A stretch of DNA of 64,000 bases, from contig CM119263.1 in the NCBI GenBank assembly GCA_051294375.1, forward strand, positions 23,720,192 to 23,784,191. The letters run 5' to 3'. This document shows positions 1 through 49,999 of the stretch, piece by piece. The translations under genes were made by a program, and so were the position numbers. How positions within the stretch are numbered: the stretch's first letter is position 1; each line of letters begins with the position of its first letter. This stretch comes from Paraspadella gotoi (lineage: Eukaryota > Animalia > Chaetognatha). The notes beneath the pieces are model-generated. The model saw only the letters and a list, made by a program, of their open reading frames with translations, made no database searches and had not been told where the DNA came from.

Positions 1-1342
1 CCGCCGCCGCGCACCGAAGAGGGTGCCAGCAATAGCGACGTTTGATAGCGGTGCGCCGCGGCTGCGTGGTGCGCGTGATGCGCGGCTGCTTGGAATCTAC
101 TAGTCGAAGGGTAGTACGGATCGTGATGCATGGATCTGTGTGCCGAAGAATAATGGCCACCCTGAGTGTGAGTCGTGGAACCCGTGGTCGGCATTCCGGC
201 CAGAGCGGGATAATGACTCCAAGGATCCGAGGCGGATGACTGATGGTGAAGTCTTTGATGGGCCGCCGCCGCCAAGTGGTGTGCGGCCGCAGCCGCGTGA
301 TAAGGATCGGCGCTGGCGAAAAGATCGTGCGAGGCGACTGCAGCGGCCGCCGCTGCTGCCGCGCCGTTGTTATGATGGTGATGGGGACGGGGGAAAAGAT
401 AGTCATCGTTATGGTGCGATGAGTATTGTGCGTGGGCGTTCCAGAAGGAAGCCGGGAAATTCCTCGACGCCATTGGACTGATCTCTCGCCACTGAAGCAG
501 AGACGATGATTTGTCGCCACCGAGCGACGGTGAGAAGCTGGCGTGGTTCAACGACTTTGTAAAATGCTCGTCTACTTTGTGACCCACGTCTCCGCTGAAA
601 GATGGGGATGTTTGTCATCAATTCTCTAACATTTTTTCGCTGGCTTAGTTAAATAAAATTAGTTAAAAACCTGAAGTAAAATAACAAAACGCAGTTTCCC
701 GAAATGTAATGCGTGTCCAGGATCGGTTCAGTTTCCGCCTCTTTCATGAGCGCCAACGCCCCCGTTTCTTGCGATTGCGTTCGGGAGATGGATGGGCTTG
801 GACTGGGATCTGTCTTCGTGCTCGTCCCTTTAGTGAAAAATCATTGAATGTCTGTATACCGGGATGATGGAATTTAATCTTATATTGTAAACGCTTTACC
901 TTGCGAATTATCTCGCTTCATCGACCCAAAAGAACCAGAACCCATCCGCGGGGTCGTAGGTCGATATTGCGATGCGACAGAAGAAGAGGATAGATGAGTC
1001 GCTGCTCCTGCGGGGAGAGGGGGTGAATGGGGGAGTAAGGAATACTTCGAATGGAGGACGGAGTTTCTCAGCATAAAAATTCAAGAATTTATTATATCTC
1101 TCACCTGGTGACACATAGCCGGCGCTGCCGCTTCCGCTAGTGCCGGCGGGGCTACACCCTGGAGTTGTGAATACCCCGTGATAGGAAGCATCGCCTCCAT
1201 GCGCCTCGTGCACGTTCATGCGTTGATTGTAGTCGGCGCACCCAGCGGAGCGCGAATGAATTGACGAGTCTACGAACTTTCCGACGTAATCTGCGGGACT
1301 TTGGTGCAAGGAGGGAAGACCCGCTGGCAAGCAAGAGAGCAT
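1..1342 (-). CDS. VGLL: Vestigial-like (VGLL1-3/vg family) TEAD cofactor with Tondu (TDU) domain; 3' end runs off the window
   Basis: Manual splicing of exons 1342-1105, 1007-900, 827-671 and 594-<1 (GT-AG introns, phases consistent) gives MLSCL...LDTHYISGNCVLLFYFS|GDVGHKVDEHFTKSLN...PMASRNFPASFWN...His/Ala-rich...DPWSHY...YQTSLLLAPS. This matches the VGLL2/3 and vg signatures ([37 protein letters not shown]). The start codon is the least certain part. Confidence 0.93.
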
Positions 1343-9379: not shown

Positions 9380-11381
9380 TCAAGACAGCAATTTCTTGGT
9401 AATGTGCAACCTCGCCGCCAGATTTCCGTCGCGCAAAGTGGCGGCCTCGAACTGACTCTTATTCTTGTTGCTATTGGTGTTCTTCAACACTCTGGGTTCG
9501 AGAGAGGGCGTGCCCGTCGTTGACTCAGTCTCGTCGCTTGAAACCTTAGATTCCACGACCGTTTCTCTCTCGGCCTCGCGTTTTCTGTGCAGAGGGAAAA
9601 TGATAGGCTAATAACAGTATTATTTGGGTTCTAAGTGGAGAAAAATAAATTGCACTTACTTCGGGGCGTGCCTGATATGCTTCACATCGTCGTTGTACTG
9701 CAACTCGCGAATCAACTCCTTTTTCTGCTTTTCCAGATTTAGCTTATGAATGTGAAGGGCTCGCGTGGCTTCGATCAGCTCTAGCAGTTGCTGTATAGTT
9801 GAAGATGAAAAAAGTCATAGTTAATAGTTTTATAGCTTTATTTCACAAATAAAAACGATTGAAAATGTATTTTTTAATTTTTTTTATCTCGCCAGCGAAG
9901 AGACTTGTTATTTTTATGGGAAAGTTTGACAAACGTTTCTCAGTTTTTCGAACTGTCGGAAATTTTCTTTGTGTTTTGTTAGTTTAATTTTGATTGTTGT
10001 TTTTGTTTTCCTGACCTGTCTCATTTCCCTATTATCCTTCTTGCTGTTCTCCGAATGTTTGTTGAGACAGTCCGTCGCTTCTTTTTTTGCTTGTTTGGAG
10101 AGGACGGCAATGGTCTCTTCCGATTCCTGGTAACAGACGGCGTCAAGACTCAAGAGACGGTAATTCCGAAATCGCTCATCCGCGATTTTTAATCTCACCT
10201 CTTCGAACGCTCTCTTCTCCACCAAAAACTGCGCCTTCAGTTGTTGAATTGCCTCGGAATGTTCTACTTGCATTCTCGCCACTTGGGCTTGTAGCTCTAT
10301 AAAAAAATATTAACAGATTCCTGAAAATGGAATAATTCGTATGAAACCCTCGCCAAATCGACGAGACCTTGGATGCGTTCGGTCTGCTTCTGCTGCAAAT
10401 CCCTGTACTCGTCCAGATTGTTGAGCTCCAACTGTGTCGACGCCAACAGATTCTCTTTCATCAAAATTTTGTCACGAAGTTCGTCCTTCTGCTTTTCGAA
10501 TTCTTCCTGCAGTTGGCGATCTTCCTCCTGGGGGAAAAAAGAATCGGTTGAATTATATGACACAGGATAACTGAAATCGCCATCGTTGAGAGTAGTTGTC
10601 GTCGTCATACAACAAACTTACAAAGTTGGTAAAACTCTTCGTTACAAATGTCGTCCAGGTGTCACAAGGTCGCTTTTTTCTTTCTTCTATTTATTTCTTT
10701 TTCTGTTTTTCTTTTCCTTTTTCTTTTCTTTAATACAAACTTTGATTTTCTCGATTTCTTTGTGGTTTTCGTCGTTAATGCTGACGATGATGTCGTGTCT
10801 CTTGCTCGTCTTCTTCTCCATATAGGCCAAGTACTCTTGCGTCTCGTTGCGAATGTTCGCCGCCTCTTCCTGTTTGGCGCCGAAAATTATCCATAGGTCC
10901 CTTACATTGGTCATTTGTCAAATAGCAGAAAAGACTGCGATTCTAATGAGGACACAAAACTACACACCGTCAGACGAACGTATTCCTTCCGCGCTTTCTC
11001 CACGTTGTCTCTCGCATCTTGCAGCGTCTTCCATGCGATGTCGTATTGTTCTCTGATATTAGCGAACGAATTGGTAAGTCATTGTCTTCGTCTTCGTCTT
11101 AGACATTGTGACGACCAAGCTGTCTAGCTTTGACCCGCTCCCTGGCTGACTCTTCTACTCACTCCCAGGTCAACTGGTTGCTCGTTCTAGGCGGACCCGC
11201 CGCGGCGGCCTTCTTTTTCTTTTTCCCGCTCACGTTCCATCCAAAGGCATCGCTTCGTGGAGAAGGTGAGGGACATTTTATCAGTTTCGTTGGTTTTATT
11301 ACTACATTTTAGGAAACTGATTAACCTCAATGCGGTCTCCCTCTCGCTCGCCCCCTCGTTCGGGTCCCAATCCGATTCCAT
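9380..11381 (-). CDS. CCDC166: Coiled-coil protein, CCDC166/CCDC121 (DUF4515) family, multi-exon
   Basis: Spliced translation includes KKKKKAAAAG...EEAANIRNETQEYLAYMEKKTSKRHDIIVSINDENHKEI...LDEYRDLQQKQTERIQ...MQVEHSEAIQQLKAQFLVEKRAFEE...SKKDNREMRQQLLELI, aligning by recall with CCDC166 (EENRLYASYV...YKVLQLEQLARI...MRVEHTQLL...FLEDKAAFE...KADNGRLRQELL). Stop TGA at 9382-9380. The N-terminal exons are less certain. Confidence 0.75.
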
Positions 11382-11755
11382 GATGATTGATGACCTGGCA
11401 CATAAAAAAGTGAATCCGCTGAATAATGAATAAATTCATTTTCTATCTCATTAATAACTTACTTTCTAATACGGATGATAATTGAACGATTTATCCATTG
11501 CTCCGACGATTTCTAAAAAGTCTATTCTTGAATTCGAACCTAAGAAGCTTTGATAAGCAAATTCAGTTAAATTTAAAAGAAATCTGAAATGATTGAAATA
11601 ACTATTAGCGACCTAAAATGGCAAAATATGGTCATATTTGACGTTCGAGGATTTTTTGACAAGCAATCCGAAGCATCAGATGCATCATATTCATCCTTAT
11701 GCATCATCCCAAAAATTAAGCATTTTTTAACGTTTTTTTGTCCACCAATTGAATG

Positions 11756-13087
11756 TCAACCAGACCCGTTTATTTTGAGGTAAGGCACGAGTTCCCCTCC
11801 CTCCACTCGTTCCTGCGTCTTGTATAAGTAACTCTGCGGTCCATAACGAGGGAACCAATAATATTCAGTCTGAATTCCATGCGAGAGTTGCGCCAGAATG
11901 GTGACGCCGTCGACGACGTAAGGCTGAACGTCCGTGTTTTCCGGAAGAAGACGTCCCGAGTCGACGAGGCCCTTGAAGGCATCGGCGGCGACGGTGACCA
12001 GATCGTTTCCCCACACGTAGAGGTTAGTGAGGTTGGCGTTGTGGACGAGGGAGCTGGCGATGGCGCAGAGGCCAACTCCGCCGATCTTGTTGTAGGTGAC
12101 GACGAGATTCGTCAGGCGCGTGTTGACGGCCAGCGCGTTGGCCAAGTGCAGGGCCCCGTCGTCCTCCAGCCTATTCCCAGCCAGGTTAAGCAGCTGCAGC
12201 GGAGTGTTGCGACGCAGCAGCTGCGAGAGTTGGTAAGTGCCGTCGCGAGTGATGCGGTTCTGACCGAGATCAAGGTAAGTCAACGTCTCGTTGTGGACGA
12301 GCTTCTCGGCGAGTCGAGTGGCGCCAAAGTCGCAGACGTTGTGCTTCTGCAGGTGGATCTCTTTGAGGCCACGATTGACTTTCAACATGTTGGCCAGATG
12401 CACCGTGGTCTCCTCCTCCTTGGAGAAGAGCAACGGGTTGTTGATGTTGAGCGCGAGAAGTGAATCGTTGTGGTTGAGGACGGTAGCGAGGGCGATGACG
12501 CTTTCCGTCCTCTGATCCGTGTCGCCGAGATCGAGAGATACCAGCGACTCATTGATCTGCAGCGCCTGCGCGAACGACATCCCTCCCGCGTTGCCGATCT
12601 TGTTCCCGTTGATGCGGAGGCGTCGGAGCGATCGATTTTCGAGCAGCGCCGACCCAATAGCCGCTCCACCGGCCGAGCCTACGTCATTGCAGGAAAGCGT
12701 CAGCTCCTCCAGCGCTGTGTCGGGAAGGCGGAGAAAGTCGGCAAGTCTTGCGGCGCCGGCGTCGGTAAGTCGGTTGTAGCGAAGGTCGAGACGCACCACG
12801 GCCGGATTCCGCTCCAAAGTCCGGCAGAGAGGATCAACGTCCACGTCCTCCACGCGCGTCTCCGTCGAACAAGTGAGATGATCGTTGCCGCCGAGATCAA
12901 GGACGGCACGACGTCGCCGCTCCTCTGGAAGCGGATCCAGGTAGGCTTCTGTCGAGCCTTCCCGGGCCGCCTCGCGTTCCAACACTTTCAGGATGCGCTC
13001 GTTCTCGTCCGCGCCCAATTCCGCGCTGATTTTGATGTAGTCCGAAAGGACTTTGCCGAAAACGGCTTCGTCAAGCTCCTCTTCCAT
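11756..13087 (-). CDS. LRRC34: Leucine-rich repeat protein 34 (RNI-like LRRs), intronless coding region
   Basis: Single 443-aa ORF with RNI-like LRRs and motifs diagnostic of LRRC34 (GNKIGNAGGMSFAQALQINESL..LDLGDTD, SVIALATVL, PLLFSKEEETTVH, YVWGN, PENTDVQPYVVDG, YYW). Confidence 0.92.
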   Translation of the reverse strand: MEEELDEAVFGKVLSDYIKISAELGADENERILKVLEREAAREGSTEAYLDPLPEERRRRAVLDLGGNDHLTCSTETRVEDVDVDPLCRTLERNPAVVRLDLRYNRLTDAGAARLADFLRLPDTALEELTLSCNDVGSAGGAAIGSALLENRSLRRLRINGNKIGNAGGMSFAQALQINESLVSLDLGDTDQRTESVIALATVLNHNDSLLALNINNPLLFSKEEETTVHLANMLKVNRGLKEIHLQKHNVCDFGATRLAEKLVHNETLTYLDLGQNRITRDGTYQLSQLLRRNTPLQLLNLAGNRLEDDGALHLANALAVNTRLTNLVVTYNKIGGVGLCAIASSLVHNANLTNLYVWGNDLVTVAADAFKGLVDSGRLLPENTDVQPYVVDGVTILAQLSHGIQTEYYWFPRYGPQSYLYKTQERVEGGELVPYLKINGSG

Positions 13088-13274
13088 AGGTCTTTCTCAC
13101 GAGAGATGGATTGATATCCCTTTTTATTATCAATGCAACGTTTTCTACCGAAATGTTTATTTCATATAGATTCCCCCTTAGGTTTTGCAACACGAAAGGC
13201 ATCAAAAATATATTTTTTTTATGAATGAGTAAAGATCCAAAACCTCTCGAAACTTTCCTCTAACTGATTTACTT

Positions 13275-13287
13275 GTTCCTTCGCAAC
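13275..13287. promoter_or_regulatory. RFX X-box-like motif upstream of LRRC34
   Basis: GTTCCTTCGCAAC, an imperfect 13-bp GTTNCY-N-NGCAAC palindrome about 190 bp upstream of the LRRC34 ATG. RFX X-boxes are typical of ciliary gene promoters. Confidence 0.4.
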
Positions 13288-14189
13288 CGATCGGGGATTT
13301 CGACGAAAGAGTTTTGTTCAAGGAAAAGTCTTGATGAAACGGAACACGCAATGAACAAAAGAACATTATGCTAACAACAAATAAAAAACTTATTTCTTTT
13401 TTTCAATCAATTAACAAATCAATAAAAGACTCATTCAGCATCCAAGCATTAATTCATGAAATTAATCATTCGATGAGCAATTCAGTTCTTATGATGAAAG
13501 AGAAAGAAAATAAAGTCATTGTATGGACTCTCAGGATATTAAGGAAGCAATAATATTTTCTCCCTCCCAGTCGATTTTATCTTAGCCCATAAAGAAGGCA
13601 ATTTTTCTTTGCTCCTAATCGGTTGAATAATGAGGGAAAACATTACCAAAACAGACACCCTAAAAACCAAAACACAGAAAACTTGGCCGTCTCGAGAACA
13701 AGATTCATCATCAACTTCTCCATCCAGCAGGGATTCACAGTTAACTAGGCCCATCTCTCCCCCGCCCCCCTTCCGCGCGCTGATTAGCCATGGATCGATC
13801 TCACTACTCAACTTCGTTCTTGCTTCTACCACATGGTTTCGCCGGCGATAACAGGGATCGAAAAGAGGAGAGAGAAAAACCGTCTCGCTTAATTGTTAAA
13901 TCGGGCGTTACAGGTTCACGATCCAAACTCTCGAGTTGCGTAAAATGCCAGTGAATTTCGAATTTAGCTTTTTTTTTTCGCAAATGACTACGAGTCCTAG
14001 CTTTCATTTTGTTTTCGCAACATTTTTGTTTTTGTTTTTTTAATTGTGTTGTTTTTTTTTTTAAATCGAGATTTGATCTCTCTTTTTTTTTTCTAGTTTT
14101 CGCGACGAGTGCTTCAAGATTTTTTTTTTTGCGCCGCCGCGAATTTTTGAATAGTAGGATTAAATTATCTTTCGTATTTAAAAAAAAAA

Positions 14190-17100
14190 ATGGCGTTGGT
14201 GGAAAAGTTCGATACAACCGACGGAAAAGGTCGCGGGCTGCGAAGCACGCAAGCGGTGAGTTTTCGTTTCACTCAAGTAACAAGAAGTAGAGACAAACAA
14301 TCCGAAAATTCTTTAATAGAGAATTTATGAGGCATGAATTGGTCGAATAAAAATTATTATTTCTCAGGGGTCCGTTTTGTTTTTACTTACTGTCAATTAC
14401 TTGTCATCGTACTCCGTCCGTTTAGGCTTCGCACGGTCAACTATTGATGTCTGCCATTCCGTTTGCCTTCGTTCTGGATATGAAAAACGTTCAGGCTTCT
14501 TGCCACGCTTGTCTGCAATCCCAAGACCCCTCCCAACTCAAAACGTGCGCAAAGTGTAAATTCGCCAAGTATTGCAACGCTAACTGTCAAAAGGTAATAA
14601 TGTACTTACAGTAGAATAAACTTTCGAAAAAGATTATCGTGGGTTAGACTGTTTATTGTGTAAGGGTATGTTTGATATGTTTGATATCTCATTGTAATCA
14701 TAAGTTCCTCCTTCTAGAACGCATGGAACGACCATAAAATGGAGTGCGGGGCTTTGACGAAGATTTTACCAAAAGTTCCCTCGGAAGATGTGAGGCTCGC
14801 GGCCAGGATGCTTTTCAAGCAGTACCAAAAGATGAAGGACGGTGCCGAGAGAGACGAGTCTGAAGAATTTCTCAAAATGGCTGAGTTGGAGTCGCACGAG
14901 AGTCGAAAGATGTCGCCAGTTGAAGCCAAGGATTTGGAAAACAAAATGAAAACGCTGAAAGGGTAAAACTAGGCGAAAATCTTTCTTTAAAAAAAAATTT
15001 GGCCTTTTTTATAATACTAGAGATTTTCGTTCAAATCTGACTACCAACTTTACAAACGAGCCTGCAATTATTTCAGGTGGAAAACAGGGATGTTTACTGA
15101 AAGGAGCCGGAAGACGTTCAACTTATTCACTTTGATGTTATTTTTCAATAATAAAATAGGCAATTTTTAAAATTATTTTACTCTCACAGGCTTCACAAGA
15201 CATTACATTTTCATAATATCCCAATGTTAATATAATTTATTAGATTTCTTTACCCAGAAATTATAAAAGAATAGAAAGTTATGGATTTCTTTGGTTCGTT
15301 AAGGAAAAAAAAATTATAAGTTTGAAAGAGGAGGTCAGAATCGGCGAAAATCTTATATCTTACATTATACACTGCGGCGCAAAAAAAAAAGACACTAAGT
15401 AGCTTTAAATACACCACTATTTCTTTTTTTAATTTTGAGAAAATATATATGAAAAGTGTAGCTCTTTTAAAGAGCTTTTGATTGGTGCAAGAAAAATTGT
15501 TGTACCAATTTCATAAGGAGAACACGTTTAAAAAAAGGGGTGGAATTTTGATAGGTTTCTTAAGATTTCTCAACAACGATTTAAAGTGAAACTTGAGAAT
15601 TATAATATTCACATCATTCCTCATTTAACGATATAAAAGTATATGAAAAAAACCGCTGACTTCTTTCGGAATAATTTTATTCATGTAAAACGAATGAAAA
15701 AAGGAGGAATGAAGAAAGCGAAAAATACAAAAAGGGAGGATGAAGAGAAAGAATAAAAAGAAATGATATAAATATTTCTTGTTGCCTTTAACCCTATCGG
15801 AAAAGAAGAAAGACGGGAGAAAAGTAACGAATTTAAGAGGGCTCAGCTGAATAGCGATGTAATCGAGTTATTCGAGGCGATGAGCGAATCAGTTAGTCTC
15901 TCTTCAGGTTCCTCACAAACACGAAACTGATTTCCAAAAAGAAAACCGTCTCCGACGATGAAATCAAAAAGATCTTTTCCCAAATCAAATCCAACGCCTT
16001 CATGCTTTCCGACAGAAGCGGCCTCCAGGTCATCTCGAGAGATAGAGACGTGATAAGAAAGTTTTATTTCGTCGAAACACGACGAAGCATAATTCTTTTT
16101 TTTTGGTGTCAGGTTATCGGAACAGGCATTTATCCCAGCATCGCTCTTCTCAATCACAGTTGCATTCCCAACTGTTGCGCCGTCCAAAACTTAAACAAGG
16201 TGAACTACTAGTACTACATTCCTTTTTCGTAATTAGATACAAGCTTACCACAACAATAACAACGACAGGTCGAATTGCGAGGGATTCGCGACATTGCTGC
16301 GGAAGAGGAGCTGCTCATTTCTTACGTTGATCCCATTTCTACTTCAATTGAACGAAAGACGGAATTAAGAGAAAAATACAATTTTACTTGCAGGTTCGTC
16401 CAATACATTTATCTTTCGGCAATCGTGGCTTTTTATATCTCGAACAATGTTTTGCTTTTTATTATCTTTTTCTTTTTATCGGTTGCGCTCAGATGTTCGG
16501 ATTGCTTCGAACGGAAAAACGATTCTCTCTACATAGCAAAGTTCGATCACGTTTCCATGGATGAAGCCAATAAATGGGCGGAAAAATCCGAAGACCTCAT
16601 GGACAAAATCTATAAAGCGAAGGTATTAAAAATGCTGCAGATCCATTGCAGGTTAAAAAATAATTTAATATTTAAACACGTTTCAGGAAACTTACAACTT
16701 TGTTGCGATGCATCAATTGTCAACCACGGCGCTAAGCCAATTAGAAAAAGTCTTTCCGGACACAAACCTGCACGTGTTGAGGCTGCTGCAGCCGCTCGTC
16801 GACGTTGCCTGCGGAATGCAAGACTTCGCGCTAGCGGAGAAATGCGGAAAAAGAATCGCCAAAGTGTTCGAGACGCTTTTACCAAAGTTTCACCCTCTCA
16901 AGGGACTCCAGGTCGTTACTGACGAAGCTTTAGTTAATTTTTTTAAAACAATTTGATATTAGGGAAGTCTCGCTTAAAATTTAAGTTAAATTGAATTTTT
17001 AAACCCCAGTTAATGCGACTGGGCGTGGTTCAGTGGCATTTGATGAAACTCGACGAAGCCATAAGCTCCTTCAACGCGGCGGAGGGTCACCTCGCTCTTA

Positions 17101-17357
17101 CTCACGGAATGGATCACCCGACGGTGTTCGATCTGGTCAACCTTCGCAAGCAGTGCGACATGGAGAAGCAAATACCGAAAGAGCAACTTTCTCAGGTATT
17201 AATTATTAATTATTCGCAATATTCAGGAATATAATTTTTATTCAGTTTTTAAAAAAAGTTATAATATTAAATTTATCGTTTTCCTCATGAAAAGGTCAGA
17301 GAACAAGCCGGTTTTGGAGCCGAAACACCGCAACAGATTCAGCAGAGATTCGCTTGA
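14190..17357 (+). CDS. SMYD3: SET and MYND domain lysine methyltransferase (SMYD2/3-like), multi-exon
   Basis: MALVEKFDTTDGKGRGLRS (split SET N-part); MYND CHAC...CAKCKFAKYCNANCQKNAWNDHKMEC; SET GIYPSIALLNHSCIPNC; ELLISYVD; post-SET KYNFTCRCSDC; TPR-like C-terminus (LALTHGMDHP). Stop TGA at 17355-17357. Confidence 0.9.
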
Positions 17358-17611
17358 GAAAATTCGCAAATTACATCTAATTTAATTTTTGTTAATTGTT
17401 GTAGTGAAAGTTTATTTGAAATAGAAATTCTCAAAAAAGTACTATATTAGAATATCGTATATTTCACGATTTTAGGATAAAAAATAGCAGCGCGATCTAA
17501 AAAGGAAATAAATAAATATAGAAATATTATAGAAAAATAACGGTTGACGACACAAAATAAGATCGCCACAAAAAGTGACGACTTCAAATAAAAACAAAAA
17601 AATGTTTCGGT

Positions 17612-22619
<5,008 letters not shown>

Positions 22620-22867
22620 TGTTCAGAATACGAATTTTACTTGTGTTTACTACATAGTATTCGTTGATTGATCATTCTAAGGTATAAACGTAAAAAAATG
22701 TTGTTTTAAAATTAAATAAGGGGATCAGCGACGCTTACAAAATTGGGAGGGGGAAAAATATTCACATGATTTCTTTTTCGCAACAGAACGGCGGTCTCAT
22801 CGGCCTTTATCATCCGCGGCTTAGGAACGCCACCCTGAAAAAAGCGTCTCTAAGACTAAGAAAGAAA

Positions 22868-23578
22868 CTACTCGTCGTTGTTGCCGCCTTCTCCGTCGGC
22901 GGTCTCCGTCTCCTCAGGCGGCGTGAGGTTGGTCACTTCTCCCGCCTTCCACTTGGGGATGACGATGATCTGCACCTCCTCGTCCTCGTTGTGCTCGTTC
23001 TTTTCCTGCTCGATGGCGATGTACTCTCCGTGTTGCTCGCACCCGATGTCAAAGACGTACTTGCCCTTTCCCGAAGGGATGTCGCCCTTGAAGGCCCCAA
23101 TGAATTTGTGGTTTGCGTGGATGAGCTCACCGGGTCCCTCCCGGCGTCCCTGGACCCAGGTTCCAAGATACTTGGTGCCCGTGTCCGCGTAGGTGTAGGT
23201 CCCTTGTCCGTGACGCAGATTCTCCTTCCACTCACCCTCGTAGGTGTCGCCGTTGACGTAAGAGTACTTGCCAGTGCCGTTTCGCAGGTCCTCGGCCCAA
23301 GAACCCTCGTACTTTGAGCCGTCCGGGTAGATGAAAGTTCCTTGACCGTGCTTCTTGTTCATCACGTACTCGCCGATATAACGAGCTCCGTTTTTAAATT
23401 TGTAAGTGCCGTGCCCGTTGCGCTTGCCGTTTTCGTAGTAGCCCTCGTATTTGTCACCGTTCGGGAGGGTTGCTTTGCCGTAACCGTGACGCTCCTCGCG
23501 TTCGTTACGCTCTCCCTCGTACTCTCCCAAGTACGGACCGGTGTCCTCTTCCTCGTAATCTGACCCGATGTCCGACAT
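22868..23578 (-). CDS. RSPH1: Radial spoke head 1 homolog (meichroacidin/TSGA2; MORN repeats), intronless coding region
   Basis: 236-aa single ORF MSDIGSD...[27 protein letters not shown]...[34 protein letters not shown]...[15 protein letters not shown], highly similar to vertebrate RSPH1. Confidence 0.96.
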
Positions 23579-23759
23579 GGCACTTTATTAATTGTTCTGA
23601 TTGTAACTTCGTTTAAAACTAAATGAAGGTCGGCAAAAAATTGATAAATTGTTGTTAACCGAACATATAAACCGAATATAACTGTGGTTTATTGCATTAA
23701 AATTAATAAAAGAAAACAAATTTTTATCAGTATTTCTTGCAAACCCCGTGTTGTTCGCC

Positions 23760-23772
23760 GTTTCTAAGCAAC
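23760..23772. promoter_or_regulatory. RFX X-box-like motif upstream of RSPH1
   Basis: GTTTCTAAGCAAC (GTTGCTTAGAAAC on minus), about 180 bp upstream of the RSPH1 ATG. A second half-site, GTTGCCTAGTA, lies at about 23900. Confidence 0.55.
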
Positions 23773-24704
23773 CAGTTCTTAGCGAAGCGGAGAAGACAAA
23801 AGGCAAACGTTTTTCTTTACTCCGACAATGAAAATTTCTTTCTAAGTTTTATTTACTGAATAAACAACGGGGAGCAATATCGAATATATCACGTTATAAG
23901 TTGCCTAGTAGTTTTATAGTCGCGATAAAAAATGAATAGAAGAATTTTTAATTCTTTTCATTCTTTTTATATAAAAGTAATAATAGTAGTAATTACGTAG
24001 GTTTAATCATGATAAATTCCTCTCGAAAGTTTTTAAATCAACCTGTGCTTAATATAAGCGATATTATTTATAAATTACTTAATAACCAGTTTTTTAGCGA
24101 GAAATAGGAAAAGGTGGATTAGTTATGACAGACATGACAAATTATATGTCTCGCTCTCCATCGTTCTTGCCCCTTGATCCTTCGACGAGACAGTTTCCAG
24201 CAGTTGTTTTATTTTCTCTTAACATCTTCATATAATGCTTTTCCGATAAGATTGTCGCTTCGTTTTTACGTGGAATAATAGAATAATGAATAGAATTTTT
24301 GAATAATTTGTTTTTGCTCGATCACCGGAGTTTTCTTTTCAATACTACAATAGAACAACATCGAAGATCTTGAAGAAATAGAGAGGCGGACTCACGTCTC
24401 AGTTAGTTATAAAATACAGACATCGACGAAAAAACATTTTTACGATCGGAACAAGGTGAGGGAAAACAAGGTTACGGTCTTCATCTTATTTTAGAACTAC
24501 GTTTTCTTGTTTTTCTATCAATTGCCTCTCCTTAAAAAAAACCTCCCAGGTTAAGAAATAAGAAAAAGAAAAAAGAAACCGCAAACTTTACACGTAACAA
24601 AGAAGTAGATGGCATCGACTTCGTTTTACTTAACCGCCTTTTAAACGTAAACATTTAATCTTTGATAGGAGTTGCAAAATAAACTTTTTAAAACACGCTC
24701 GAAA

Positions 24705-27169
24705 ATGAAGTGTCGCCTATTTAAAAGCGTTCAGGTGATTATTTTCCCTTGTAATTTTCGGAAAAAAAAATAAGGATACAATTTCACATATTTTTGGGGT
24801 TATTCCGTTTTAGTTTTTCTTGTTTTGCTTGGCCTGCGTCCAGCTGGGTCAGTTTTTAACGGGATCATATTTGAGATCATGCATTTCTACACTCGAACGA
24901 CTCTACGGCTTCAATTCAAAACTAAGTGGTGAATATTCTATTTTGAAGAAATAAGACAAGACGTCTGTTTCACTTTTACTAGCTGATTCGGGTGAATTAA
25001 CCTAGATTTACTTTTCGAACGACTTCCTTCACCAAACACCATTCCTTAAGGGTTGCTCGTTTCTGCAACGGACGTTGGGACTCTTTGCGTCATCCTCTTT
25101 GTCTCTTATTTGGGTCGTCGCGTTCATCGTCCACGAACCATCGCTGTTGGTTAGCAATCGTTATTACGTATTTTTCTATTAATACGGTCTTTATTTGAAT
25201 TTGAAATTTGGTGGGTATCCCTATAAATTGAAGCAATAAAATTTGAGTACTGCAGACCTGATTTCAACTTATCCTTACTGTGAAGATTAAACTCTCAACC
25301 CCTGATTGTTCACTTCAAGAAGATAACCCTAGACATCGTACTATTGTTAGGGCCCATCTTTGTCAATGGGGTGGGTCAGAAGTTTGATTTGGGAACCTTC
25401 CCAAATGAAACTTTTTTACAATTATGATAAAAAATTTCAATGGACCAAAATTTTCTAAAATGGTTAGAATTACTAGTAATTATTTTTTTAATATTTATAT
25501 ATAAAATTTTTTTAAAAAAATTTATATTTTTAAAAACAGAAACAGTTAGCTTTTAAAAAGTTTTCTCCACAAAGTATAATTAATTTTTCAATATTTTGAT
25601 GATAAGTGGGTCAAAATTTGAAAAAACCTTAAAAAAATCTTCATCATCATCCGATAATAATAGTAGTTTTTGTTAATTTTCAGTAATAAAACATTAAAAT
25701 TTTAAAAAGTTGTAATTAAATTTTTTATTTAACTTTTTGAGCTCTATCAGAATCAATTAACAATTTTTTTAAAATTATATATATATAGAGAGAGATTGAT
25801 TTTGCGTCGGTGACTTGATCAGTTGCCACAATATCATAATTTTAAGTAGCGAATTACTCATTATTCGGAACATTTTTTCAAACAAATATTTTAACACAAT
25901 AACTATTTAGGGAGAAAAACAATTTGTATTTGTTTTGCTTCAACGAATTTTATTTGAAAATAGTTTGTTGGTCGGACATGTTTCGACTCTACAGTTAGAG
26001 TCTTCATCAGCATTTTGACAATCAATAATTTTTTTTTTTGAAAGTCTATACACAACACAATAACTAATATTTAATGCTGTTCCCATTAAAATTTGAATTT
26101 GGTCGGCTACCGCTACTTTTGTCCCATTCTATTCCATTCTTTCAGCGACGTTGATAATGGCCGCTGCCGTATCTTTATTTGGCGCTATCTACTTCGTGGC
26201 GGCACCTCCATCTGAGGCCGTCAAGTACGCCAATGAACGGAGCAGCGGTCACGCGGCCCAAGTAGACAACAAGACCAAACTGTGTCTTGCGGTAATCGGG
26301 AGAAAGTTTACGGGCGATTTACAGTTTATATAACATACTGAATTTAATATTATCTAGACGATCGAGGTCAATCACACCGCGATGGGCATTCGAAGTAAGG
26401 GATCGAACGAGAGCGGCTACTTGATTTACGGCCTCATGTATGCGGCTTTGGTCATTTTCGGTGAGGTTCTTTCAGCTTCGTCCTCGCCCCTCCTCCCAAA
26501 AAAGATACCATTTTGTGCAGTAATCTCGTTTTTCTCCGCTAGGGGTTGGAATCGCACCCGTGAATCCTCTCGGAGTTTCATATCTTGACGACGCGGCGGA
26601 TCCGAACAGAGCGCCTCTATACGTCGGTGAGAAAAAAAAAACAACGGATATATAAACATCACTGACGAAATTTATTTTCTATTGCTTTTGTTTTTATTTA
26701 AAGCCGTTCTGTTCGCACTTTCTATCGTGGGGCCCGCCTTCGGTCACCTAATCGCTGCCAAAACGCTTACCATCACGACAGAGACTCGAGGTAGACAGTC
26801 GGCTAACAAAGGCTAAGGGGATATTTATAATTTTTATTTATTTATTTATAAATACCCTACAGGTCCGATGTGGAACATCGGGTTCTTCATTGGTGGCGCA
26901 CTCATGGTTATAGCGCAAATTTCTCTTTGGTTCTTTCCGAAAGTCATGCCGCAACAGAAGATGGTCAAGGAAAAGGTTCATTTTTCTAAAAATACCTTGC
27001 TTTCGTTCTTTCTTTTAATATCTTTGTTTCTTTCTTTCTTTCTTTTTTATTTCCTTCTTTCTTTCCATCTTTCTTTTTTCTTTTTTTCTTTCTTTCATTT
27101 TTTCTTTCTTGCTTCCTTTTTTTCATTTTTTCTTTCTTTCTTCCTTTCTTTCTTTCTTCATCCTTTCCC

Positions 27170-27245
<76 letters not shown>

Positions 27246-27306
27246 TTTTATTTCTATCCTTCTTTCTTTTTTCTTTTTTCTTTCTTTCCATCTGTCTTTA
27301 TTTCTG

Positions 27307-27379
<73 letters not shown>

Positions 27380-30121
27380 ATAGGCTCTCCTCGAAAGAGA
27401 GATGAAGCAACTCCAGCGTGGTCGCAGCAACGAAGCTTTCGACGAAATCTCGGAGAAGATGCCTAACGGCAATGACAAAGAGCCGATAGAGAGGGAGAGG
27501 AAGGAGTTGACGGAAAACGGACCAAGGACACAAAAGAAAGATGATGAGAATAAAGACGAAGGCGAGAATTTGGAGGAAAATCTGAGGAAGATGAGTTTTG
27601 TTGGATATCTCAAAGGTAAATAAAAAATATGGAAATAACTTTGGTTTTGCATTGACAATCTGTAATCTGAAATCTTTACTCAATAAAAATTATTATAGAT
27701 ATATAGTTGATCCCTTAATTTTCATTCAAATTCAAAGAAACAAATGACTAAACGTCATAAAGAGACGAGAAATCCCAAGGCCTGACTTCATTTTCAGGAT
27801 TCTTCTCTGCTGCGAAAGACATCATCAAAGAGCCTATCTGGTGCTTAATGACTCTCATGACAGTAATTGTGAGTAAGGAATGGCGATCTGATATTGCATT
27901 CTTGCAATGTAGCACCTCTTTTTGAGATTTAAGAATGAAGATCTATTTTGTGGGGTTTTTTTTACAGATTACCGCCATGATAAGTGGCATTATCTCGTTT
28001 CAAGCAAAGTACATTGAAGTTCAATTCGGAACCTCCGCCGGAGAAGCTAATCTGTTGTTAGGTGACAGACGCTGAAACCATAATCTAGTATCGATTAAGT
28101 AATATTCTTGTGGATAATCTGGTATCGCTTTACCTTAAGGCGCCATAAACATTCCAGTGGGCATTGTGGGAATAGTGGCCGGAGGTTACATCATGAAAAA
28201 ACGTGCTTACACTTTAGCTCAGGTAAGTCGACAACCAATTGTAAAAAATTACAACAATTTTCGCTAAAATTAATGTAATTGAGCTTTTTTAGATTAAGGT
28301 ACGACTAGAGTAGAATTAAAAAGATAAAATTATTATTACATGCTTACAAATGAGCACCTCTAAATGTACAAGATATATATGCTTACAAATTTCGCGATGA
28401 TGTTAGCTAAAATTATAAATCACCAATGCCTGTCCAAAGTCAGGGGCAAGATAGCTTATTTATTAAATGAATGGATAATTTTTATATTGGTTGTACCAAT
28501 TTCATAAAATTCAGCTCCTTGTATTTTGATTCTGGGCGGAGTACAATATAGTATTCCCCGATCTAATACTTAAGGGAGTGGTCTTTTCATACAATTGAAA
28601 CATTCTTTGAAACATCACACCACTTCATTGATAGGGAAGCCAGGTACTTTGGGAGTGAATTTATAAACGAGACTGTGAGAAAGTCTTGATTGAAAGCTTG
28701 CAGGGACCTGCTATGTCATTATCTTGTAAGAGTGATGGAGACCTTAAACCACCAATGCCTGTCCAAAGTCAGGGGCAAGATAGCTTATTTATTAAATGAA
28801 GGGATAATTTTTATATTGGTTGTACCAATTTCATACCAAACTCTTTCACCACTAGGCTAGTCTTCATTGCTTATTTTTCTTTTCAATATCGACGGCCATG
28901 TCGAGCGTTCTTCTTTTCCTTGGGTGTCCCACAAGACCGATAGTCGGCGTCACCGAGCATCCGTTCATCAGGTTTTAATTTTAAAAGAAAAGCGTTTTTA
29001 AAGCTTTCACCGGAAGAAAGATACCCTAACTTTGTTATTACATAATTACGTAGATAAGATTTTAAATTTATTCATACCCGTCGTGTTTTTTTTCTTTTTT
29101 CTCCAATTTTCGTTCCGGACTTCGCAATCCGCAGTTCCAACGAGTTGGTATCGACTTGCAATCGTCATTGCGGATGCAGTTTAGAGGATTATTCTCCGAT
29201 TTGCGCCGACGACGGGCTTGAGTTCGCTTCCCCTTGTCACGCGGACTGCAAACGATTTGTAACTTATATCTAATTAATTAGTAACTTTCTTTTACTTCAT
29301 GTTTAGCTAAAAACTTTTTTTTTTTTTTTGCAATCGAGGCAGAACGCGACTTCCAACTATTTCGACGAATGTGGCTGCATCGTTGCTTCTCGCGCTCGAA
29401 ACGGAAAGTGCGACCATTTGTGCTCATCGCACGTCAATTACTTCATTGCGGCTGACAGGTTTTCCCTTTTTTTTTACCTCTTTTCCGGAAACTAAAAAAA
29501 CATTATTATCGGATTATCTTATGTTACATTAATTGCTTTATCTTCAGCTTAGTTTTTATGTTGTCCGGCTTCGTGCACGCACCGGGGTACATAATCTTTC
29601 TTCGCTCGGTTAAGCCTACGCACAAGTCGTTGGCCATCGGATTGCAGTATTTATTCATCAGGGCGCTCGGTGAATTTTACATCTTGTACATAAATTTTTG
29701 TCTCAAACGAAAATTAAAATCAATCCCTAATTAGGGAAATTTCCGTCCCCCATCTACTTTGGCGCTGTGGTCGATTCCGCGTGCTTGCTGTGGAGCAAGG
29801 GTGGCACAATCACTGGCGCTGGAGCAGGAAAAAAAGGTTCTTGTCTTACATACGATTCCTACGCATTGAGAATCAGGTGTGTCTTTTGTTTATTGATGTC
29901 TTACTTTTAGTGCACAGAGCGACATCTGAGCTAAACACTTTTATACGCAGTCTAAATTAAAGATTCTGAAATTGACGATTAGGTTTTGGGGCTTGTCCCT
30001 GATAATTCAAGTCTGCATTATCCTAATTTTTGCGGTGGTTGCAGTTATACTTTGGCGCCGAGAAAAAAATGAACGAGAAGAAGAAAATACATCGTCCTGT
30101 GTTGAGAAGACTGATTTATGA
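24705..30121 (+). CDS. SLCO: Organic anion transporting polypeptide (SLCO/OATP family, MFS with Kazal-like loop), multi-exon
   Basis: Spliced peptides: ISTLERLYGFNSKLSGLLVSATDVGTLCVILFVSYLGRRVHRPRTIAVG; WNIGFFIGG...LWFFPKVMP; KYIEVQFGTSAGEANLLLG; Kazal CNRHCGCSLEDYSPICADDGLEFASPCHADC; LRSVKPTHKSLAIGLQYLFIRALG; PSPIYFGAVVDSACLLW. Stop TGA at 30119-30121. Confidence 0.93.
26995..27378. repeat. (TTTC)n / pyrimidine-rich simple repeat in an SLCO intron
   Basis: Long TTTC tracts directly visible. The F/L/S-rich and K/E/R-rich ORFs here are products of the repeat. Confidence 0.95.
28421..28835. repeat. Interspersed repeat with 86-bp direct terminal repeats, in an SLCO intron
   Basis: 28421-28506 and 28750-28835 are identical apart from one base (caccaatgcctgtccaaagtcagggg...ggttgtaccaatttcata). 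Related fragments lie at about 5731-5776 (reverse), 8909-8927 (reverse), 15498-15515, 38999-39055, 39444-39628 and 55786-55869. Confidence 0.85.
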
Positions 30122-36695: not shown

Positions 36696-41009
<4,314 letters not shown>

Positions 41010-48282: not shown

Positions 48283-49999
48283 ATGGCCGACTGGACTGAC
48301 CCCGACGAATATGGGGCCGCCAGAGGCGCGAACAATGACGAAAGAAAAACCCAGGAACAAACTTTAAACTCTGTCGGAAATACGAAAAACTACGCGGAAA
48401 AAGAGGACGAAGGCGCCACCGACATTATTACAAATAGCGCCACGATCGAAGCGAATATGGTTGCTATGACAACGATCGCAGCGGTTTCCGAGTTTGATTT
48501 AGCTGAAGTGAATTCGGATTTGTTGACGGACGACGAAGAATCGGAAGCGGCGGGACCAACTGCAGCCAATGACGATGGAAACTCGTCTACTCACGAAATC
48601 GACCCTTTGGACGAAATCGTTTTTGACGAATCCGAATGGATCGATGACGACATGGACAGCCGAATCACCCAACCCGAACCTTCGGACGAGGGTCAGAATT
48701 TGCTTTTTCAAATCAGATGTTTATTATGCGCTTAGGTATTTAGCAAAAATGTCCACAAATATTCGCTTTTAAAAAAAATATGGCTTATAGAAATTATTCA
48801 AGATTTCGTAAACGAATCCTTACTAAACTACAAGATTTTGCATCGTCGAGACCTGAGAAGTAAGTTTTCTTTTTTCATGAAAATTTGCAAATTACTTGTT
48901 TCACTATTTTCTATTTTTATATTTTATGAAGGATTTAGTATTTAATCTATATTATTTAAACAAATATATATTGCTTTCTTTTTTAAAAATGTTTTATTTA
49001 TCTAATAATTCAATTTGGGAAGGGGAAGTCAGTGTTGTCTTCTGGAAATAGAGGGAGCATTTTATAATGTAGATTTAATGTCTCACCGTTTTTTTTTTCA
49101 AAATCATCGACTGAAAAAACGAGGAGGAAAACATATCACACATCAAGTTGAGATCGAAGTTCGAATTCGAGTCGAGTCCGCCAGAAAAATTCGGCAACAC
49201 GGAGTTTTGAACGGAGCGATCGAGAAGATAGAAGGTCTCGTCGATTTCGTCAACATCTATCTGTCTATCTATCTTTCTTTCTTTCTATCTCTCAGACAGC
49301 ATCCATTCCATTCTCCACACTTCCGTCCCCGGTTTTCTCTTCGATCGAATCCCGAAGACAAGTAGCGAAAGGAGCGTAGACTTTAGCGGCGGCGGCGGCG
49401 GAGGCGGTCTCGCCAGTTCGATCCTCACCAGCGTCGGAAGTTTCTTCGGATCCGTTGGGGGTAAGAAACTAAATAAAAATAATTCGTTATTAAAACCGAC
49501 GCTTTCACATTCCCCTTGACACTTTATATTCCACTCGAGATTTCACCCATCAATCAACGTTGCGTTTTCACAGCTCAAAAGCAGGAGAATTGCTTCGTGT
49601 GCGACGAGCCGCTCCAAAATCGTCCCCCTGTCCGCAGACTTTTCTGTCAACACGAATTTCACGAATGGTGTCTCAAAAATTCACTGCGAAATCAGGCAGG
49701 GCAAATCGCTTGCAGGGTTAGGGATTTAGTTGGGTTGGGTTAAGGCAGGTTTGAAGGCCTTAGGCTTGACAATAGTAAATAACTTTTATCTTTTTAAAAT
49801 CAAAGTAAATTATAAATTCTACATAGGATCGTCAAATCATCATTTGATGGTTTGCTTCAGTAAATTTTGGAAGCTCTGATAATTATTATAATTATTTTAA
49901 ACATTAACACGAATTTAGGCGAGATGTCCCTCGTGCGGTGATTGCGTCGTCTGCAAGAACGATGAATTTAAAGTTCTCATCTTTTGGAAAAAAATATGA
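48283..49999 (+). CDS. RING-H2 finger protein (putative E3 ubiquitin ligase) with acidic N-terminus, about 288 aa
   Basis: Exons 48283-48691, 48791-48859, 49296-49460, 49574-49716 and 49919-49999 splice in frame. C-terminal CFVC-DEPLQNRPPVRRLF-C-Q-H-EF-H-EW-C-...-C-PS-C is a C3H2C3 RING-H2. Confidence 0.85.

Follow-up and report, generated by a model that had tools for sequence, protein, structure and literature searches.

Two closely spaced pairs of cilium-related genes on one strand: separate messages or shared transcription units?

Introduction

Neighbouring genes of like orientation are known to be linked in several ways. In operons resolved by spliced-leader (SL) trans-splicing, as described for nematodes, tunicates, flatworms, rotifers, and chaetognaths, a dicistronic precursor made from one promoter is divided by 3′ cleavage and by trans-splicing at an acceptor within a short spacer. 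In the cholinergic locus (unc-17/cha-1 in C. elegans), the VAChT gene is nested within the first ChAT intron, and the two genes share 5′ exons. Ordinary tandem neighbours in compact genomes, finally, can appear joined through their untranslated regions (UTRs) in de novo assemblies, and cilium genes in particular are known to be served by RFX/X-box promoters (targets of DAF-19, dRFX, and RFX1-3). Here, a 64,000-nt stretch of contig CM119263.1 (assembly GCA_051294375.1; in the following, the window) is analysed, which carries two pairs of cilium-related genes on its minus strand: LRRC34 followed by a CCDC166-like gene of the DUF4515 family, and RSPH1 followed by RSPH10B. A first-pass annotation had proposed each pair to be a single RFX-driven transcription unit, either dicistronic and resolved by trans-splicing, or with the first gene lying in the 5′UTR intron of the second.

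The balance of our results leans against operons without refuting them. The leading explanation, to which about half of our confidence is given, is that the cilium genes, tightly packed and probably co-regulated, give rise to four separately processed mRNAs, the ends of which abut or overlap. A trans-spliced operon and an alternatively spliced unit with a shared leader, taken jointly, are considered possible but less probable.

The locus shares features with each of the systems named above. As in SL-resolved operons, the genes are co-oriented, the spacers are short, and acceptor-like sites precede the downstream start codons; furthermore, RNA was found across the spacer of the RSPH1 pair, and one gene, RSPH1, carries a foreign 5′ leader. 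In contrast to such operons, this leader is 144 nt long and apparently unique, the spacers of 248 and 374 nt are long relative to those of Ciona operons, and the genes are cell-type-specific cilium genes and not housekeeping genes. For a chaetognath operon, a spacer of only 3 nt is given in PMC2481426, against which the spacers of the window are likewise long. The resemblance to the cholinergic locus consists in an intron-free coding sequence (CDS) that is preceded by a non-coding exon and followed by the first coding exon of a functionally linked gene of like orientation; the difference is that use of the leader by RSPH10B is hypothetical and that the leader exon has no place in the window. 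Ordinary tandem neighbours are resembled in the short distances, in an RNA contig that spans RSPH1 and RSPH10B and continues for about 1.7 kb towards a convergent gene, and in the monocistronic size of relatives' contigs, whereas the linkage of cilium genes in both pairs, an RSPH1 gap without canonical poly(A) signal or obvious promoter room, and the absence of an RSPH1 5′ exon from the locus set the window apart from them.

Arrangement of the gene pairs and signals in the gaps

Both pairs show the same anatomy, namely an intron-free CDS on the minus strand followed by a spliced gene. The distance from stop codon to ATG is 374 nt (11755-11382) between LRRC34 (11756..13087) and the CCDC166-like gene (9380..11381), and 248 nt (22867-22620) between RSPH1 (22868..23578) and RSPH10B (17612..22619), so that co-orientation and a short intercistronic distance were found in both cases. 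The downstream genes are represented by homology-guided exon models, and since both of their start codons are backed by end-to-end alignment with the proteins of relatives, the gaps have the lengths that the first-pass annotation had given (about 375 and 250 bp). Its description of the upstream genes as intronless holds for the coding sequences of LRRC34 and RSPH1; it does not hold for the RSPH1 transcript, onto which a leader is spliced at 23618.

If the four messages are separate, LRRC34 would be cleaved and polyadenylated a few nucleotides past its stop codon, probably by means of an AATAAA in its last codons. This hexamer (11774-11769), which had been overlooked before, ends 11 nt before the TGA, and the TGA is followed by two CA dinucleotides and a GT-rich run. 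Such an arrangement would be a textbook cleavage-site layout, with a predicted 3′UTR of a few nucleotides. The transcript of the CCDC166-like gene would then begin within the gap, where a short exon devoid of coding sequence would be followed by a 5′UTR intron of 68 nt. RSPH1, in turn, would have a 3′UTR probably filling much of the 248-nt gap, with cleavage, if served by non-canonical AGTAAA signals, near the RSPH10B ATG, and RSPH10B would start within or just past this UTR, overlap or low-level read-through giving rise to fusion by the assembler. In a compact genome, co-expression would then be due to proximal regulatory DNA that neighbours share and not to one processed precursor.

A hexamer scan confirmed that neither gap contains AATAAA or ATTAAA on the sense strand. 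In AT-rich control DNA, these hexamers occur at 0.31-0.43 per 100 nt, and the chance expectation, from two control stretches, amounts to about 1.4 and 0.95 sites in the two gaps; with both gaps empty (P of about 0.1), their absence is a hint and not a finding. The RSPH1 gap holds only variants of the hexamer, i.e., a GATAAA 57 nt after the stop codon and two AGTAAA (22651-22646 and 22641-22636), the pair lying 17-32 nt before the RSPH10B ATG. Past the terminal genes, canonical signals are found: for the CCDC166-like gene, an ATTAAA at 61 nt from the stop codon and an AATAAA at 100 nt, and, for RSPH10B, canonical signals at 196 and 226 nt, the one at 196 nt being AATAAA.

Splice sites were scored with matrices built from 22 local introns, 4.6 kb of intergenic DNA serving as control. 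The acceptor matrix scores the RNA-proven acceptor of RSPH1 (23618) below 4 and thus misses real sites, so that a low score means little. Acceptor-like sites had been noted in both gaps, and they were located there on the minus strand: TTTTTTCAG, with its AG at 22836-22835 and an exon start at 22834, reaches 10.5, while CTTCTTAG (exon start 11539) reaches only 4.7, and the GTAAGT donor ending an exon at 11463 scores 7.7. A score of at least 10.5 is attained by 7 of the 22 true acceptors, and none of the control sites reaches 10. Together with an acceptor scoring 8.4 (exon start 11394), the GTAAGT donor delimits a candidate 68-nt 5′UTR intron (11462-11395, minus strand) of modal size, which would imply a 5′ exon of the CCDC166-like gene inside the gap. 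Further acceptor-like exon starts in this gap on the minus strand are 11612, 11583, 11547, 11539, and 11418, in addition to that of the candidate intron.

Further short elements were observed in and near the gaps. The sequence ATGATGCAT occurs twice between LRRC34 and the DUF4515 gene (11707-11699 and 11688-11680, minus strand), the copies being 10 nt apart and about 50-75 nt past the LRRC34 stop codon; it is a candidate promoter or 3′-end element. GTAAACA, which matches the forkhead core RYAAAYA, is present at 22650-22644 (minus strand), 25-31 nt before the RSPH10B ATG and overlapping one of the AGTAAA hexamers, and ATAAACA is found about 70 nt before the LRRC34 ATG.

RNA across the RSPH1-RSPH10B gap

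RNA evidence was obtained from the assembled contigs of one public run, aligned to positions 22520-23900, and covers the RSPH1/RSPH10B pair. Contigs of this kind drop minor forms and short side branches, and one that extends across two genes is no proof of a single molecule. One contig, 5612 nt long and with a mean word depth of 335, matched 22546..23618 without mismatch, indel, or joint. On its low side, it continues into an exact match of 22379-22408; RSPH10B intron 1 is thus spliced out, and the run represents RNA. In agreement with this, of the 31-mers sampled from 18300-24000, a share of 0.52 is present in the run, compared to an expected share of 0.523 for exons and gap only, 0.59 if 382 nt upstream of RSPH1 are added, and 0.93 if introns are added. 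Accordingly, the run contains the exons and the 248-nt gap and nothing else of this region.

Beyond RSPH10B exon 1, the contig extends for another 4395 nt, of which the remaining CDS explains 2695, leaving 1700 nt past the stop codon. Since these lie in the direction of a convergent SMYD-like gene, the contig seems to fuse neighbours regardless of strand. The last open reading frame (ORF) of the SMYD-like gene ends, at the level of ORFs, about 377 nt from the RSPH10B stop codon. With SMYD chains being 423-490 aa long, 377 nt plus a spliced SMYD mRNA would about fit the extra 1700 nt, and the SMYD-like gene is the probable source of this part of the contig. At a depth of 335, read-through of 1% would be enough to bridge a gap. 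The contig therefore shows that RNA over the whole gap exists, and not that it is one transcript; gap-spanning RNA and a spliced RSPH1 leader are compatible with either form of a single unit, operon or nested.

The 5′ leader of RSPH1

The contig covers the 40 nt before the RSPH1 ATG (5′UTR, 23618-23579, minus strand) and leaves the genome exactly at 23618, directly after an AG (23620-23619) preceded by the pyrimidine-rich tract ttttttgccgaccttcattt, from where it runs on for 144 letters. This RNA-supported 3′ splice site on the minus strand joins RSPH1 to a leader that was seen on this gene only. A 30-mer of the leader gave no match with up to two mismatches and no shared 11-mer on either strand of the 64-kb window. 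In literature text, it produced one chance match only, in a rat microRNA paper, and in JGI metagenome contigs none. Among 78 RSPH1-related metagenome loci (best identity 72%), the leader shared only one chance 12-mer, in locus L074, and none of the 78 contained non-MORN exons of RSPH10B. No resemblance was found to the 27 chaetognath SL forms given in Table 3 of PMC2481426.

The leader probably represents a cis exon of the ordinary kind, either absent from the assembly or situated beyond the limits of the window. That it is a spliced leader is unlikely: the true acceptor joint, its foreignness to the locus, and the presence of trans-splicing groups among spiralians speak for it, while its length of 144 nt and its assembly as a unique path speak against it. 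To our knowledge, the longest spliced leader measures about 51 nt, and a widely common leader would end a contig of a k=31 graph within about 30 nt. An assembly chimera takes up the remaining share of probability. Under every reading, the foreign leader stays odd.

As a separate observation, an RSPH1 of 55% identity is encoded on a contig from a marine metatranscriptome that starts with CGATTTCGATTGTCTAACAG (L016:1-20). This we take to be the 3′ part of the Oikopleura spliced leader, in which case no more than about 20 nt of a genuine SL would be retained in such contigs.

Weighing the readings

The sizes of relatives' contigs bear on whether the pairs are expressed as joint messages. The three full-length RSPH10B relatives (955-973 aa, CDS of 2868-2922 nt) have contigs of 3205, 3228, and 3300 nt, whereas the four short fragments in the same cluster (69-118 aa) come from contigs of 559-1554 nt. 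In the RSPH1 cluster, of which 15 of the 28 members were listed, the longest contig measures 993-1941 nt for 14 members and 6159 nt for one. In the DUF4515 cluster, four of the five members have a contig on record (1325-1655 nt), an LRRC34 relative is encoded on 1578 nt with a CDS of 1338 nt (i.e., CDS plus 240 nt), and a fragment (P0241, 174 aa, 87-90% identical) on 1862 nt. The combined UTRs in relatives' contigs thus amount to only 220-450 nt (283-432 nt for RSPH10B relatives). Messages of monocistronic size argue against stable dicistronic mRNAs and fit independent genes and processed operons alike. Support for four separate mRNAs comes from these contigs and from a contig fusion that is not limited to co-oriented genes, and likewise from the LRRC34 AATAAA, the canonical signals past the terminal genes, the 68-nt intron, and the supported start codons, as well as from a leader that is too long for the spliced leaders known to us and unlike those of chaetognaths.

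Several observations weigh against separate messages. The RNA contig is unbroken from RSPH10B exon 1 through the entire 248-nt gap and across RSPH1 in full, and the 11 RSPH10B introns within 18300-24000 contribute no words to the run, unlike the gap. The RSPH1 gap has no AATAAA or ATTAAA, and if its AGTAAA signals are used, there is no space for both termination and a promoter of the second gene; at 33 nt past the RSPH1 stop codon, an acceptor-like site of very high score (10.5) is situated. Furthermore, the window, including 40 kb upstream of the gene, does not encode the leader of RSPH1, and the RSPH1 promoter is thus not where an ordinary gene model would expect it. Both members of both pairs are cilium-related, which suggests selected linkage. 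Finally, the genes are not necessarily adjacent in the relatives, and the 6159-nt contig of the RSPH1 cluster could be a fused form.

A single unit of RSPH1 and RSPH10B, and perhaps of LRRC34 and its DUF4515 neighbour as well, starting at a leader encoded elsewhere, be it a cilium SL operon in a spiralian lineage for which none have been described or a nested radial-spoke pair, is regarded as rather unlikely. In its nested form, resembling the cholinergic locus, a distant or unassembled 144-nt first exon would be common to RSPH1 and RSPH10B, and the LRRC34 pair would be built alike. Splicing to 23618 would yield RSPH1, polyadenylated in the gap, and splicing past RSPH1 to 22834 or about 22677 would yield RSPH10B. 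An upstream non-coding exon spliced to RSPH1 does exist, the RSPH1 CDS, a single exon of like orientation, closely precedes exon 1 of RSPH10B, a strong acceptor-like site is present 33 nt past the RSPH1 stop codon, the two products are functionally related, and VAChT in the first intron of ChAT provides a precedent. Nevertheless, the RNA evidence, confined to the RSPH1 pair, contains no junction from the leader to RSPH10B, a weak objection because contigs drop minor forms, and the leader exon has no location in the window. The UTRs of RSPH10B relatives (283-432 nt) are, moreover, too short for a 144-nt leader, 215 nt from 22834, and a 3′UTR of about 200 nt, although their totals would fit the acceptor at 22677. 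Such a unit is considered improbable.

An SL operon, comprising each pair or at least RSPH1-RSPH10B, likewise receives little of our confidence. In this case, the foreign RSPH1 leader would be a spliced leader in place of an outron with its start close to the X-box-like motif, and one promoter would give rise to a dicistronic precursor resolved by 3′ cleavage and trans-splicing at the gap acceptor. The genes lie close together on the same strand, and RNA is continuous over the 248 nt between RSPH1 and RSPH10B, a distance just within the rule of less than 250 bp for chaetognath operons (PMC12460157); the gap between LRRC34 and the CCDC166-like gene, at 374 nt, exceeds it, and an AATAAA precedes the LRRC34 stop codon. 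The leader is joined at a true AG acceptor and absent from 40 kb upstream, acceptor-like sites (one of them very strong) occur in both gaps, and neither gap holds a canonical poly(A) hexamer. In addition, a quickly built LRRC34 tree places the sequence among spiralians, and trans-splicing is described for flatworms, rotifers, and chaetognaths in PMC2481426 and PMC12460157. On the other side, the leader is about three times as long as the longest SL known to us and was assembled as a unique path, it was seen on RSPH1 only, it differs from all 27 chaetognath forms in PMC2481426, and it is unmatched in literature text and JGI metagenome contigs. Chaetognath operons are, according to PMC12460157, enriched for housekeeping and not for cell-type-specific genes, and past the 3′ end of RSPH10B the contig is fused to yet another neighbour.

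It is highly improbable that RSPH1-RSPH10B and LRRC34-CCDC166-like form stable dicistronic mRNAs, exported and translated as two-ORF messages of a type that occurs in green algae and some fungi. One spliced contig does carry both ORFs and the gap, but relatives have contigs of monocistronic size, the length of the upstream ORFs (236 and 443 codons) would make leaky scanning or reinitiation very inefficient, and the contig fuses a third neighbour too.

If the pairs are single units, they would represent ciliary-themed co-transcription in animals from which it is not known, and would lend themselves well to the question of whether operons or nested genes form as a result of genome compaction. 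If they are ordinary neighbours, RNA contigs in this genome fuse adjacent genes, even convergent ones, and fused contigs, a missing AATAAA, and X-box-like words are not to be taken as signs of operons.

X-box-like motifs upstream of LRRC34 and RSPH1

Two X-boxes had been proposed to drive the pairs. Motifs of 13 nt are indeed present on the minus strand, GTTGCGAAGGAAC at 13275-13287 (188-200 nt before the LRRC34 ATG) and GTTGCTTAGAAAC at 23760-23772 (182-194 nt before the RSPH1 ATG), but only the RSPH1 motif fits a published consensus, GYTRYY N1-3 RRHRAC, as given in PMC2375033, and matches to it occur at chance frequency (eight in the window, including the RSPH1 motif, versus 6.5 in shuffles). 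The LRRC34 motif fitted none of the published consensus forms tested, not even the most degenerate one, RYYNYY N1-3 RRNRAC, for which 80 matches in the window stand against 76.9 expected. Both motifs have two mismatches to GTNRCC-N-RGYAAC, a level of agreement found 50 times in the window with 38.7 expected, and a pattern with two matches versus 0.17 expected was fitted after the fact. In the 374- and 248-nt gaps, the consensus scan gave no match, so that the absence of further X-boxes from the gaps was borne out.

The X-box evidence is thus at chance level. As in RFX/X-box ciliary promoters, an imperfect palindrome of 13 nt is positioned 180-200 nt before the ATGs of two cilium genes, one of them within the consensus; unlike in such promoters, the matches are as frequent as expected by chance, the LRRC34 motif falls outside the consensus, and the RSPH1 motif precedes a 3′ splice site without being demonstrably part of a promoter. 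Being about 140 nt upstream of the RNA-supported acceptor, the latter would sit in an intron or outron of the assembled RSPH1 transcript. That both motifs have the same orientation and lie similarly far from the ATG (182-200 nt) is suggestive, but was recognized only in hindsight, and an X-box before the ATG of one gene is not predictive by itself according to PMC2375033.

The best X-box matches of the window were found elsewhere. GTCGCCAAGCAAC at 39296-39308 has no mismatch to GTNRCC-N-RGYAAC, and both this sequence and a near-palindrome, GTTGTCATAGCAAC at 48460-48473, are better than the motifs of the two ciliary pairs.

Identity and exon structure of the four genes

The DNA of the window is eukaryotic in character, with an AT-rich background, GC-rich exons, and short GT-AG introns (median of about 80-90 nt for 22 modelled local introns). 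LRRC34 is represented by an intron-free ORF of 443 aa. A homology search yielded 132 proteins at E ≤ 0.001 among 7993 candidates, the best named matches being LRRC34 of Lingula, Ptychodera, and Saccoglossus with 52-53% identity over 91-92% of the query (Lingula: E 2.8e-119, 52% over 91%). RNI-type LRR repeats were recognized (Pfam LRR_6, 8.3e-21; Atlas 0.98), and the best relative (P0001) is 72% identical. Judged by this full-length similarity, 11756..13087 is an LRRC34 orthologue. The quick tree grouped it with three relatives in a well-supported spiralian clade.

The intron-free CDS of RSPH1 (236 aa) is collinear with the RNA contig over its whole length and contains MORN repeats (Pfam, 2.1e-42). 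Its residues 1-222 align with residues 1-225 of the RSPH1 chain 7dmp_A in the PDB (E 7.5e-92), mouse and human RSPH1 chains from radial-spoke structures are matched with E of about 1e-91, and identity reaches 61-71% to named RSPH1 proteins and 87% to the best relative (P0121). From the full-length match of its MORN repeats, 22868..23578 is classified as an orthologue of RSPH1 (radial spoke head 1).

RSPH10B was modelled with 15 GT-AG exons (CDS 2769 nt, 922 aa) on the minus strand: 22619-22548, 22410-22329, 22070-21884, 21614-21467, 21387-21096, 21027-20824, 20756-20593, 20517-20316, 20250-20078, 19923-19729, 19099-18632, 18556-18416, 18241-18017, 17913-17840, and 17753-17612. One of its non-MORN exons retrieved three relatives, two of which are full-length (973 and 955 aa) and map by tblastn from 22071 down to 17839; 665 of 892 residues of the model (75%) are identical to the 973-aa relative (P0242). 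The latter is nearest to three Atlas clusters named 'Radial spoke head 10 homolog B' (0.95-0.96), and its best PDB match is Chlamydomonas FAP266 (7.6e-57). The C-terminal exons, searched singly against Pfam, gave no match above chance (0 of 4), and a PDB search with a single exon gave no match. With an N-terminal MORN array and a conserved C-terminal region, 17612..22619 is identified by sequence as RSPH10B, the name being taken from Atlas labels and not from alignment to a named protein.

The CCDC166-like gene on the minus strand has a modelled CDS of nine exons (354 aa) with GT-AG at all junctions and an open frame: 11381-11326, 11252-11163, 11052-10968, 10869-10741, 10527-10368, 10296-10199, 10126-10016, 9790-9660, and 9584-9380. 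The model is identical end to end at 234 of 347 residues (67%) to a 375-aa relative (P0245). A second relative from the same cluster (P0244), found as the single protein match of one exon ORF in an all-against-all phmmer search, carries Pfam DUF4515 (PF14988; 7.2e-17, 62.4 bits against a cut-off of 24.5). Searched singly, none of seven exons matched Pfam above chance, and P0245 retrieved only coiled-coil and ubiquitin noise from the PDB. Human CCDC166 and BBOF1 presumably both carry DUF4515. The name 'CCDC166-like' is acceptable at the level of the DUF4515 family (CCDC166/BBOF1 group).

Neighbouring genes and further observations

The SMYD-like gene (14190..17234, plus strand), convergent with RSPH10B, displays in its ORFs a SET motif (NHSCxPN) and a MYND zinc finger, followed by a SMYD C-terminal domain; its last exon matches the C-terminal domains of SMYD1 and SMYD3 with E of 0.002-0.006. 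Scans of the window against Rfam and for tRNAs gave no matches. Pfam searches with 87 ORFs of the window recovered only Vestigial, OATP, Atrophin-like, RSB-motif, and RING domains, which are too few to gauge the typical intergenic distance. Among these, a Vestigial/Tondu motif is located at 3-614 (minus strand), a RING finger at 49483-49740 (plus strand), and the C-terminus of an OATP transporter at 29731-29907 (plus strand), as part of a multi-exon gene of about 26000-30000 on the same strand. Two long GC-rich ORFs (GC 0.67) on the plus strand, 36696-37301 (202 aa) and 39591-41006 (472 aa), are without Pfam match; they are possibly further intron-free genes, so that intron-free coding sequences are perhaps not rare in this genome. 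A T-rich stretch of low complexity is present at 14033-14072.

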